IMG/VR virus record: IMGVR_UViG_2718218360_000008
Length of the DNA: 64,000 nt
Direction: 5' to 3' (one strand)
Source of the DNA: a virus
Taxonomy: Duplodnaviria > Heunggongvirae > Uroviricota > Caudoviricetes
How positions within the stretch are numbered: the first letter of the stretch is position 1; each line of letters opens with the position of its first letter. Shown one piece after another: positions 44,601 to 62,600 of this stretch. The position numbers were made by a program.

Positions 44601-47600
44601 TGAAAAATGCGGTTTGCTCACACGGGCGGATAACACGAAATCCTGCGAACTGGCCAAAACCTGAGTGATATAAAAGTAAAACCCCGTTTGTTAGCCAGCA
44701 GGGGGTTTTGTGTTTCCTGACTCCGGAAAAGTCAAAGGAGAAAGTGTGTTTGATTTTAGCAAACTGATTCGGAGATTGAGTGATGGCTGAAAAATTATCC
44801 ACCTGGAAGTTCATTCTTATCTGGCTGGTGTTTGTGATTATGGTCTTCCGGTTATTTCATCGGTCAGATACGCTGGTGGTGAAATGAACCGCGTACTGTC
44901 GTGGTCATCATTGCCCTGCTGGTGGCCTGTGGTGCGCTTAGTCTGGGGGCTGAATCATTACCGTGATAACGCCATCACCTACAAAGCGCAGCGCGATAAA
45001 AAAGCCAAGGAGCTGGAGCTGGCAAACGCAACCCATTACTGATATGCAGGTGCGCCAGCGCGATGTTGCTGCGCTCGATGCAAATACTCAAGGGAATTAG
45101 CTGATGCGAGAGCTGAAAATGAAACTCTGCGTGCTGATGTTGCCGCTGGTCGTAAGCGCCTGCGGATCAACGCCACCTGCTCCGGTACCGTGCGTGAAGC
45201 CACCGGCACCTCCGGCGTGGATAATGCAACCGGCCCCCGACTGGCAGACACCCGCTGAACGGGATTATTTCATCCTCAGAGAACGGTTGATGACAATGCA
45301 GAAGCAGCTGGAAGGGGCACAGGACTATATCCGCACTCAGTGCCTGAACTAAGTTTTGCGGATGCGCCGTATCGTCGCTGTATTCCCTCATTAACAGAGA
45401 CCGCAGCCCGACAGGGAGACTCCTCTGCGCGAGTGTGCGGGGATAATCAAAAACGATACACACCGGGGTTTACCGCGTTAACGGAGCGCGGCGTTGTCCC
45501 CTCATAGTCGCTGGTCCGGTGCGATGGTGGAAGAAACCGGACTACATTACAAATGATAACCATTATCATTTTGCGGGTCCTCCTGGTGGGGTGGGCCTGA
45601 ACACGGGGCGGGCGGCGCGGAAAAAGGCGCATTTTTTGATTTTTATGGCACCATCACCACCAGTGTAAGTTATTGATATATAGAAAAATAAAATTTTTAG
45701 TGTCGAATCTGGTTGTTTTTTGTTCATCACTGGTGTGTGTTTACATAATTTTCAGGGGGAGTTATGGATCGTGAATTAAAAAATCTGCATCTGAATATTT
45801 CCCAACTGGCCCGCATTATCCGGTGCTCATCGACAGACTGTTGCGGCTCGGGTAAAAAACATAAGCCCAGCCGGTGGTCATGAGAGCAATCTCAAACTGT
45901 ACCGACTGACAGATATCCTTGCCGAGCTGATGAAAGCTCCTCTGCCTGTAGATAACGAGGAAATGGATCCTCATGCGCGTAAAGCATGGTACCAGTCAGA
46001 ACGTGACCGACTGAAATTTGAGCAGGAAACTGGTCAGCTTGTGCCAGTCAGTGATGTCAGGCGGTCCTTTTCTGTCGTGGTGAAAGCGATAGTTCAGGTA
46101 CTGGAAACCTGGCCTGACCGGCTGGAGAGGGACAGGGGGTGGACCGCATCACAACTGAATGAAGTACAGATTGTGGTTGATGAGATCCGCGACACACTGG
46201 AAAAGGCAGTCATTGACTGTTGTGATGAGGCCGATATGTGAATCAGGTGAACGAGAGCCATAGCCGCGCATCCGATATCTGGCGCGAAGTGGCCTCGCTG
46301 TTTCGCCCACCCAGCCGGTTACCAGTAGCGGAAGCCATCAGGCGTTATATGCGGGTTCCACGGGGAGCCAATACTTCCGGTCCGTGGGAGTCATCGCTGA
46401 CGCCCTATATGATTGACCCCATTAATACATTATCAGCCCGTGAATATGACGCGGTGGTGTTTGTGGGACCTGCGCGAACCGGGAAAACCGAAGGGCTGAT
46501 TGATGGCTGGATTGTGTACGGCATCATCTGTGATCCGGCGGATATGCTGGTGGTGCAGATGACTGAGACGAAGGCGCGTGAGCATTCCAGAACGCGTCTT
46601 TCCAGGACGTTTCGCCACAGTCCGGAGGTCAGCAAGCGCCTCAGTCCTTCCCGTAATGACAACAACGTCCACGATAAAATGTTTCTTGACGGCTCCTTCC
46701 TGAAGATTGGCTGGCCGTCGATCACCGTCTTTTCCTCTTCGGATTACCGTCGTGTGGCGCTGACGGATTATGACCGTTTCCCTGAAAACGTGGACGGGGA
46801 AGGGGATGCCTTCACGCTGGCCTCAAAGCGTACCACCACCTTTATGTCCTCGGGGATGACCCTGGTCGAGAGTTCACCGGGGCGGGATATCACCGATACC
46901 AAATGGCGTTGTGGTGGCGCACATGAGGCACCGCCAACAACGGGTATCCTGTCACTGTATAACCGGGGAGACCGCCGCCGGTGGTACTGGCCGTGTCCGC
47001 ACTGCGGGGAATATTTTCAGCCGGTGATGGATAACATGACCGGATACCGGAATAACCCGGATTTTGTGGCTGCCGGTCAGGCTGCCCGTCTGATGTGTCC
47101 GCATTGTCGCGGGCTGATTGCCCCTGAGCAGAAACGCGAACTGAATAACCAGGGGATCTGGCTTCGTGAAGGTGAACGGGCGGCGGCGGACGGCAGTATC
47201 ACCGGAACGCCACGAAACTCCCGGATTGCGTCATTTGGATGGAGGGGCCAGCTGCGGCGTTTCAGACCTGGGAACAACTGATTTTTAAACTGCTGGCGGC
47301 AGAAGAAGAGTATGAGCGAACCGGCAGTGAAGAGACCCTGAAAGCGGTGGTGAACACCGATATCGGACGACCCTATCTGCCCCGTTCAGCCACGGAACAG
47401 CGTAAAAGTGAACTGCTTGAACAGCGTGCCGAGCCGTTTCCCCGGCGATCTGTGCCGGATGGTGTGCGTTTTATTGAGGCAACGGTTGACGTACAGGGCG
47501 GTAAAAATCGCCGTTTTGTTGTGCAGATCACCGGATACGGAGAGCAGGGGGAACGCTGGATTGTTGATCGCTACAACATCCGGCATTCACTGCGCTGCAG

Positions 47601-59600: not shown

Positions 59601-62600
59601 AACTGCTTCACCATCTGCCTGAACAACTGAGTAAACGGGAGAGGTATTCTGAAAAATGGCAACGACGAACGCATTCTGTCTGGCGTCACCGCCACTGGCA
59701 CGCATCTGCCTTCACGGGGATTTGCAACGATTTGGCCGCCGCCTCAGCCTGTACGTGAACACGGCAGCGGAAGCCATCCGTGCCCTGTCGCTGCAGATGC
59801 CGGGATTCCGCCGTCAGATGAACGAAGGCTGGTACCAGATACGTATTCGCGGTGAGGACACGGCACCGGAGGCGGTGTACGCCCGTCTTCACGAACCTCT
59901 GGGTGAGGGGCGGTCATCCATATTGTGCCGCGACTGGCCGGGGCCGGAAAGGGTGGACTGCAGATTGTGCTGGGGGCGGCGGCCATCGTGGGGTCGTTCT
60001 TCACTGCCGGGGCATCAATGGCGTTATGGGGTTCAGCCCTGGCAGCCGGTGGTTTTTCTGCCACCACGATGCTGTTTTCACTTGGAGCCAGCATGATTCT
60101 GGGTGGTGTGGCTCAGATGCTGGCCCCGAAGGCTAAAGTACCGGAGTACAAAAGCACGGATAACGGTAAACAGAACACGTATTTTTCGTCACTGGATAAC
60201 ATGATTGCCCAGGGGAACCCGATGCCGGTGCCTTATGGTGAAATGCTGGTTGGTTCACGACGGATATCCCAGGACATCAGCACCCGTGATGAGGGCGGAG
60301 ACGGGAAAGTGGTGGTTATCGGGCGGGATGAAAATAAAAAAATCCCGCAGAGTTAGCGGAGCTGCGGGAGAGAACGATGAAGATTAACGTTATGGAGTTA
60401 TTTTTCAGGCATCAAAAAAGTAATGCAGCGTCATTATTGCGGCTACAGGCAATTGCCGGAAATGTGAAGAGTTTCAGAAATTTTATTCCGTCATGACACA
60501 GGCACCCTCCGGGGTGCCTGTTGTTTTCTGGCATAAACAGATTCAGACATCAGACAGGAGAGGGGGACAGAGTGGGTAAAGGGGGCGGCAAGGGGCACAC
60601 GCCGGTAGAGGCAAAGGACAATCTTAAGTCCACGCAGATGATGAGCGTGATTGATGCGATTGGTGAAGGGCCGATTGAAGGTCCGGTGAAGGGGCTGCAG
60701 AGTATCCTGGTGAACAAAACCCCACTGACGGACACGGACGGCAATCCCGTGATACACGGTGTGACCGCGGTCTGGCGCGCCGGGGAGCAGGAGCAGACAC
60801 CACCGGAAGGCTTTGAGTCCTCCGGAGCTGAAACCGGACTGGGCGTGGAAGTGACGAAGGCAAAGCCGGTAACGCGCACCATTACATCCGCGAACATTGA
60901 CCGCCTGCGGGTCACCTTCGGGGTGCAGTCACTGTTGGAGACCACCTCAAAGGGCGACCGTAATCCCTCTTCTGTCCGACTGCTGATTCAGTTGCAGCGT
61001 AACGGTAACTGGGTGACGGAAAAGGATGTCACCATTAACGGCAAGACCACCTCACAGTACCTGGCGTCGGTGATTCTGGAGAATCTGCCTCCCCGCCCCT
61101 TTAACATCCGGATGGTCAGGGAGACGGCGGACAGCACACGGACCAGCTGCAGAATAAGACGCTCTGGTCGTCATACACCGAAATCATCGATGTGAACAGT
61201 GCTACCCGAACACGGCGATTGTGGGGCTGCAGGTGGATGCGGAGCAGTTTGGCGGTCAGCAGATGACGGTGAACTACCATATCCGCGGTCGCATCATCCA
61301 GGTACCGTCAAACTATGACCCGGAAAAACGCAGTACAGCGGCATCTGGGACGGCAGCCTGAAACCGGCATACAGCAACAACCCGGCCTGGTGCCTGTGGG
61401 ACATGCTGACTCACCCGCGCTACGGCATGGGAAAACGCCTGGGGGCGGCGGATGTGGACAAGTGGGCGCTGTATGCCATTGCGCAGTACTGCGACCAGAT
61501 GGTCCCTGATGGTTTCGGGGGCACAGAGCCGCGGATGACCTTTAATGCGTACCTGTCACAACAGCGTAAGGCGTGGGACGTTCTCAGTGATTTCTGCTCG
61601 GCGATGCGCTGTATGCCGGTATGGAACGGCCAGACGCTGACGTTCGTTCAGGACAGTCCGTCGGATGTGGTGTGGCCGTACACCAACAGTGATGTGGTGG
61701 TGGATGATAACGGCGTGGGGTTTCGCTACAGCTTCAGCGCCCTGAAGGACCGCCACACGGCGGTGGAGGTGAATTACACCGACCCGCAGAACGGCTGGCA
61801 GACCTCCACGGAACTGGTGGAAGACCCGGAAGCCATACTGCGCTACGGGCGCAACCTGCTGAAGATGGATGCGTTCGGCTGTACCAGTCGCGGTCAGGCC
61901 CACCGTGCCGGGCTGTGGGTGATAAAGACCGGACTGCTGGAAACGCAGACGGTGGATTTCACGCTCGGGTCACAGGGGCTGCGTCACACACCCGGTGACA
62001 TTATTGAAATCTGTGATAACGACTATGCCGGGACCATGACCGGCGGACGTATCCTGTCCATCGATGCCGCCAGCCGCACCCTGACACTGGACCGTGAGGT
62101 GACCCTGCCGGAGACCGGTGCCGCCACGGTGAACCTGATTAACGGCAGCGGTAAGCCGGTGAGCGTGGCCATCACTGCACACCCCGCGCCGGACCGGATA
62201 CAGGTCAGCACCCTGCCGGATGGCGTGGAGACATACGGTGTGTGGGGGCTCTCCCTGCCGTCACTGCGTCGTCGCCTGTTCCGCTGTGTCTCCATCCGGG
62301 AAAACACGGACGGCACCTTTGCCATCACGGCAGTGCAGCACGTACCGGAAAAAGAAGCCATCGTGGATAACGGGGCGCACTTTGACGGCGACCAGAGCGG
62401 CACCCTGAACAGCGTCATCCCTCCGGCAGTGCAGCACCTGACGGTGGAGGTGAGTGCAGCTGACAGCCAGTATCTGGCGCAGGCGAAATGGGACACGCCG
62501 CGGGTGGTGAAGGGCGTGCGCTTCAGTCTGCGCCTGACCAGTGGAAGCGGTCAGGACAGCCGTCTGGTGACCACCGCCATCACTGCGGATACAGAGCATC

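Follow-up and report, generated by a model that had tools for sequence, protein, structure and literature searches.

Single-base frameshifts in an O111-type late-gene block of an Escherichia coli O157:H7 prophage probably reflect assembly error rather than prophage decay

The window considered here is a stretch of 64,000 nucleotides from the Caudoviricetes record IMGVR_UViG_2718218360_000008, and its subject is a run of phage late genes at 45,764–60,356 that is interrupted by single-base frameshifts. The initial annotation assigned this run to a second prophage, 'prophage 2', and ascribed the broken genes either to the decay of a cryptic element or to systematic homopolymer errors in the assembly. 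The window as a whole is an Escherichia coli O157:H7 lambdoid prophage: positions 1–24,000 are 100.0% identical to many O157:H7 chromosomes, and the prophage is near-identical to the one that adjoins the ompW remnant and the trp operon in FRIK2455, with which positions 1–44,072 can be aligned. An extra 22.4 kb is located within the J gene of this resident element ('prophage 1') and carries genes for lysozyme, Rz, terS, terL, portal, ClpP/capsid, tail proteins, J, lom and tail fibres.

Two perfect copies of an 1,833-bp direct repeat bracket a 20.5-kb block of O111-type DNA (Table 1). Once one repeat and the block are taken out, positions 1–40,804 and 63,166–64,000 are left and reconstitute the FRIK2455 prophage exactly. 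The block is a circularly permuted O111 late region: it runs from the C-terminus of J to the end of the tail-fibre genes, crosses a junction and continues from nucleotide 15 of the lysozyme gene to the N-terminus of J. The left breakpoint matches the end of the tail-fibre module homology shared by O157 and O111 prophages. The idea that the right breakpoint is a module boundary found no support, as it lies 13 nt before the lysozyme alleles become homologous. The junction 44,071|44,072 was not found in 5,426 RefSeq E. coli genomes, in IMG/VR, in GTDB representatives or in JGI metagenomes, the last three being searched with a 40-mer. As the block starts at lysozyme nucleotide 15 directly after the tail fibres of another prophage, 'prophage 2' itself lacks a holin, Q, an early region and an integrase. 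The integrase/att, early region, Q and holin of a complete free-standing prophage are all missing, and at its right end the block runs on into the resident J. The supposed second prophage is hence part of a permuted block seated in gene J of prophage 1. Within the block, the Rz/lysis patch at 44,654–45,560 changes from the O111-type to the O157 TR01-type allele, a switch that makes the block a mosaic when set against any one known prophage.

Table 1. Features of the O111-type block and its surroundings (window coordinates)
Feature	Coordinates	Strand	Remarks
J gene of resident O157:H7 prophage (prophage 1)	38208..41687	+	O157-type to 40,804, then O111-type
Perfect 1,833-bp direct repeat, copy 1 (middle of J)	38972..40804		by sequence comparison
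O111:H8-type J C-terminus, lom, tail-fibre genes, tfa remnant	40805..44071	+	6 substitutions and 4 single-base indels vs NZ_CP077499.1
Blunt junction, no microhomology	44071..44072		end of tail-fibre module joined to lysozyme nt 15
Lysozyme (R) remnant	44072..44586	+	first 14 nt missing; 5 single-base deletions, 0 substitutions vs O111 relative
Rz-type 'lysis protein' gene	44884..45352	+	three open reading frames, split by 5 of the 14 indels of the surrounding patch
terS (DUF1441)	45764..46241	+	frameshift by +C at 45,810 (CC to CCC)
terL	46238..48359	+	-T at 47,233 (T4 to T3) separates ATPase and nuclease domains
W-like gene, portal, ClpP-protease/major-capsid fusion	48356..52039	+	intact, identical to O111:H8 relative
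DUF2190/Phage_cement_2 gene fused with next head gene (Gifsy-2 domain)	52127..52726	+	-A at 52,437 (A5 to A4)
Z-like, U, V, G genes	52729..54959	+	intact
A AAA AAG heptamer in phase with G	54935..54941	+	unchanged in window; T open in -1 frame
T reading frame	54986..55293	+	shifted by -T at 55,132 (T7 to T6); C-terminal half consists of out-of-frame residues
H (tape measure)	55337..57981	+	-T at 56,841, outside homopolymer
M, L, K	57978..59758	+	intact; -T at 59,011 in L/K spacer
I	59755..60331	+	shifted by -G at 59,906 (G5 to G4), again by -G at 60,324 (G4 to G3)
Second J gene	60572..64000, past window end	+	deletions at 61,136, 61,194 and 61,332; stop at 61,193
Perfect 1,833-bp direct repeat, copy 2 (middle of J)	61333..63165		by sequence comparison

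The interval 45,764–60,356 is a lambda-type late operon whose head module contains a fusion of ClpP protease and major capsid protein. Its nearest relative is the prfC-site prophage of the O111:H8 strain 7-58 72A (NZ_CP077499.1), where all the genes are intact. Indels were called by pairwise alignment with this prophage and by translation of the reading frames, and domains were assigned with Pfam; the left part of the window was compared with FRIK2455 and the patch 44,654–45,560 with the O157 TR01 allele. The gene order terS-terL-W-portal-protease/capsid-...-Z-U-V-G-T-H-M-L-K-I-J-lom-tail fibre is collinear, as read from the annotation of the otherwise identical relative by the Prokaryotic Genome Annotation Pipeline (PGAP). 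Pfam hits on the fragments of the window agree with a late operon (DUF1441, GpA_ATPase, GpA_nuclease, Phage_cement_2, Phage_tail_T, TMP_2, Tape_meas_lam_C, Lambda_tail_I and FNIII-A_GpJ). The interval is present at a coverage of at least 80% in 521 of 5,426 complete E. coli genomes, and also occurs in Shiga toxin (Stx) phages. The order from lysozyme to tail fibres is common to the block and to lambdoid prophages of enterohaemorrhagic E. coli (EHEC) that bear the ClpP/capsid fusion, namely NZ_CP077499.1, ASU11, CP-1639, the Stx1 phage VT1-Sakai and Stx2a phages of the Stx2_95 type. Positions 45,561–61,446 are 98–99% identical to the last four and equal the O111:H8 prophage at every base except for 13 single-base indels; positions 42,259–44,071 are identical to that prophage. 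Unlike these relatives, the block is permuted, devoid of the holin and of all early genes, and placed in the J of another prophage; frameshifts affect at least nine of its genes, whereas the same genes are intact in every relative inspected.

Alignment with the O111:H8 relative and the translations bear out that terS, terL, T, H and I are frameshifted in the sequence. The interval holds nine single-base indels, of which one each falls in terS, the head-gene fusion, T, H and the L/K spacer and two each in terL and I. The initial description of one indel per broken gene is thus correct for terS, T and H, but not for terL, the tail of which is shifted a second time by loss of C at 48,253 (C4 to C3), nor for I. 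Its two examples of homopolymer loss, ggggg to gggg at about 59,905 and ttttttgg to ttttttg at about 55,139, were recovered at 59,906 and 55,132 respectively. H is left in two pieces of 539 aa (TMP_2) and 291 aa (Tape_meas_lam_C), and the open reading frame (ORF) created by the head-gene fusion encodes 199 aa. Portal, the protease-capsid fusion, U, V, G, M, L and K had been reported intact and are indeed identical to the intact O111:H8 relative, as is the Z-like gene. The list of five broken genes proved incomplete, since the head-gene fusion, the L/K spacer, lysozyme, Rz and both copies of J are also hit.

Beyond the late operon, deletions at 40,821/2 and 41,271 put the J of prophage 1 out of frame, and a stop codon occurs too early, at 40,881; the C-terminal quarter of this J is of O111 type. 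The second J is O111-type to about 61,332–61,446, and from 61,333 onwards equals the J of the FRIK2455 prophage except for one single-nucleotide polymorphism (SNP). The patch 44,654–45,560 differs from the TR01-type allele by 4 substitutions and 14 single-base indels, equally divided between insertions and deletions. A better relative was sought for this divergent patch: the TR01-type Rz allele accounts for its substitutions, and the 14 indels remain.

The spectrum of these differences is distinctive. Against the O111:H8 relative, the interval 45,764–60,356 shows 0 mismatches and 9 gaps; when the same 14.6 kb is compared between natural relatives, the counts are 101 mismatches and 2 gaps, 44 and 0, and 129 and 2. 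Natural divergence of the late module therefore consists of more than 95% substitutions. In the 16.5 kb of zero-substitution sequence (44,072–44,653 and 45,561–61,446) there are 17 deletions and a single insertion, so that substitutions do not outnumber indels as a neutrally decaying sequence would have them do. Runs of at least four bases account for eight of the 17 deletions (7.9% expected, p = 2e-5), which agrees with the initial statement that several indels fall in homopolymers; six of the 17, however, remove a non-repeated base. The terS-to-I interval measures 14,593 bp in the window and exactly 14,600 bp in most of the 30 best E. coli matches listed.

The indels are also private. No best-matching genome shows the length changes, so that lesions held in common with orthologous prophages or related strains, as expected of decay, are not in evidence. 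The comparison with orthologous prophages that the initial annotation had proposed found the genes intact in the relatives inspected and the tested indels in no other genome. The N-terminal fragment of terL, the 199-aa fusion and the N-terminal fragment of H, all three with unambiguous starts, and the fragments of I, T and J have no counterpart among about 15 billion proteins. An exact look-up of ten fragment proteins returned matches only for two generic C-terminal ORFs, both of which originate in unrelated, differently broken or partial assemblies. A 40-mer over the deletion in H was not found in IMG/VR, where its intact version is present. The differences are private, indel-only, deletion-biased and enriched in homopolymers, the combination expected of consensus error.

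Finally, the indels are confined. About 36 lie within the block, from 40,821 to 61,332, and four in the remaining 43.5 kb, a contrast between the 20.5-kb block and the rest with a binomial p of ~1e-14 (calculated with 37 indels). Between 3,757 and 40,804 no indel separates the window from FRIK2455 over 37 kb with 200 runs of at least five bases; at the sparse rate of the block this stretch would hold ~29 indels, and the probability of none is ~4e-13. No indel was found in 61,333–64,000 either. Homopolymer error across the whole genome is excluded by the clean 37 kb. Inside the block the density is uneven: the 1.7 kb to the right of the junction contain about 20 indels (~1.2%), both insertions and deletions, and 4 substitutions relative to the best-matching alleles, and the density climbs again beside the switch points in J. 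All but four indels consequently fall in the structurally abnormal region 40,805–61,332, with their peak beside the unique junction. The four exceptions are private single-base indels at 700, 3604, 3625 and 3756, at the left end of prophage 1 on the DinI/integrase-remnant/dicB side; they are absent from FRIK2455, 2-6-2 and HB6, three independent O157:H7 assemblies, and are probably a second, small cluster of errors outside the block.

With no substitution against nine indels in the late operon, and with indels that are private and confined to one odd block, the evidence points to sequencing or assembly error rather than decay. From these comparisons of sequence we place the probability at roughly 0.88 that the frameshifts are consensus errors, located in a part of the assembly that is of low quality and possibly chimeric, and not mutations of the bacterium. 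The frameshifts are accordingly judged to be no real biological feature; the original observation is real in the sequence, and its extent was understated. The block was probably built from few or unpolished error-prone long reads, with low coverage or failed polishing as the presumable technical cause; these reads could have come from a contaminant or a minor template that was joined to the chromosome via the J repeat. In what the papers on Kastor (PMC12007338) and Homopolish (PMC8011154) set out on the subject, single-base indels that fragment genes are a recognised type of error in long-read bacterial assemblies, likewise exposed by comparison with close relatives, and the deletion bias and homopolymer enrichment of the window are compatible with that type. 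Unlike long-read errors that extend over a whole genome, those of the window are limited to one structurally abnormal block and the cluster at 700–3,756. The second of the two explanations offered initially, systematic homopolymer error, is therefore favoured as to assembly error, but the errors are not assembly-wide and a third of the deletions lie outside homopolymers.

Genuine decay would make of the block a promoterless remnant without an early region, in which frameshifts arose by replication slippage under relaxed selection. Such a fate would suit a segment that begins inside lysozyme and has neither holin, Q and early genes nor an integrase, and half of the deletions do lie in slippage-prone runs of at least four bases. 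Defective lambdoid prophages with frameshifts are moreover documented in O157 Sakai (PMC2669165), whose pool of many near-identical lambdoid prophages, with real inactivating lesions and recombination between prophages, provides the natural comparison (Asadulghani et al. 2009, PMC2669165). The Sakai defects consist of frame-shift mutations, deletions and insertion sequence (IS) elements, and the terminase is intact in all the lambdoid prophages but one, Sp4 (PMC2669165); the lesions of the window, which strike both terminase genes, are instead private, indel-only and clustered at ~2 per kb. Eighteen indels with zero substitutions in 16.5 kb run counter to the substitution-dominated divergence of this module, the tested indels recur in no other genome or protein collection, and an indel frequency of ~1.2% in both directions over the 1.7 kb after the junction also speaks against decay. 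The decaying cryptic prophage, the first of the initial explanations, is thus disfavoured and appears very unlikely. A burst of frameshifts caused by an error-prone polymerase acting on incoming DNA, or recoding of the broken genes by programmed frameshifting, is scarcely credible. The -1 deletion bias (17 of 18) superficially resembles the mutation spectrum of DNA polymerase IV, but a frequency of ~1e-3 per base exceeds any reported targeted mutagenesis by orders of magnitude. As for recoding, one likely programmed -1 site is present between G and T: towards the end of G, and in its phase, stands the A AAA AAG heptamer, and T is open in the -1 frame, an arrangement that matches G/G-T of lambda and by this analogy is likely to be a natural frameshift site. 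The lesion in T is distinct from it, a deletion in a T run 190 nt downstream of the heptamer. Since terS, terL, H and I are single ORFs in all relatives and several indels lie in spacers or at non-slippery bases, programmed frameshifting was rejected for the broken genes, the normal G-T site excepted.

A further possibility separates the structure from the bases. A circular O111-type DNA deleted for its early region, or a partner prophage, might have recombined with the resident J through one crossover in the middle part that both genes share, which would give a Campbell-type insertion between 1.8-kb repeats; the indels would still be errors, for example because a duplicated region could not be polished with short reads. 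A single-crossover insertion would have exactly this layout, the flanks reconstituting the FRIK2455 prophage and the extra DNA corresponding to one contiguous, though permuted, part of a known prophage, and lambdoid prophages are well known to recombine with one another (PMC2669165, PMC3945230). The donor, however, should have possessed a mosaic J with an O111 N-terminus, an O157 middle and an O111 C-terminus, and no J matching it above 99.1% was found in 5,426 genomes. The blunt junction is unique, the errors peak exactly there, which suggests support from a single read or a chimeric read, and an exact match to one O111:H8 isolate within an O157:H7 chromosome is also compatible with contamination. 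A real insertion with wrong bases is consequently possible but doubtful. These same observations (the layout, the missing donor J, the unique junction, the error peak and the O111:H8 identity inside an O157:H7 chromosome) are fitted at least as well by a chimeric join or a contaminating template. The unique junction, the permuted O111 copy and the perfect flanking repeat also mark the block boundaries as anomalous in themselves, in favour of consensus error. That a real Campbell-type integration of the O111 late segment also carries about 36 real indels, acquired by frameshift-prone copying of the incoming DNA, is highly improbable; were it true, it would amount to local hypermutation, producing indels only, in DNA acquired by horizontal transfer.

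Several points weigh against consensus error. The perfect J repeats are indel-free, at odds with a simple model in which repeats escape polishing, and positions 41,723–44,071, immediately to the left of the junction, are clean; both facts are incompletely explained by a simple model of coverage or polishing. Escape of repeats from short-read polishing is insufficient as the only cause, since both the 1,833-bp J repeats and the 97%-similar tail genes of prophage 1 are clean. The four private indels at the left end of prophage 1 indicate that low quality is not strictly linked to O111-type DNA. In addition, genuine frameshifts, deletions and IS insertions do occur in EHEC prophages (PMC2669165), and it is conceivable that a late region without holin, Q and early genes, being under no selection, has undergone real decay.

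Taken at face value, the sequence would lead to at least nine phage pseudogenes and a decaying second prophage being scored in an O157:H7 genome. What has been taken for a tandem prophage could itself result from a wrong join, and the frameshifts are best handled as a problem of data quality, with little biological significance unless reads confirm the bases. The case is a warning for analyses of prophage completeness, pseudogenes and pangenomes in EHEC genomes, and it offers a simple reference-based signature by which consensus error may be told from decay: differences that are indel-only, private and confined.

Some minor observations concern the annotation of neighbouring and related genes. 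PGAP labels T 'partial/pseudo' in every relative, although a clean 102-codon ORF is found there (L001 12225-12533); the label probably arose as an artefact of annotation, T being shorter in this tail module. In prophage 1, the tape-measure gene (32993-35605) is open in the window and annotated with an internal stop in FRIK2455; a substitution between the two at 34,298, within this gene, is only a candidate for that stop. The genome of strain 2-6-2 (NZ_CP038419.1; L011) has G-run deletions of its own, equivalent to window positions 18792 and 19371; its annotation gives the holin as partial and the lysozyme as frameshifted, two genes that are intact in the window and in other strains. Lesions similar to those of the block are therefore present in accepted reference genomes.

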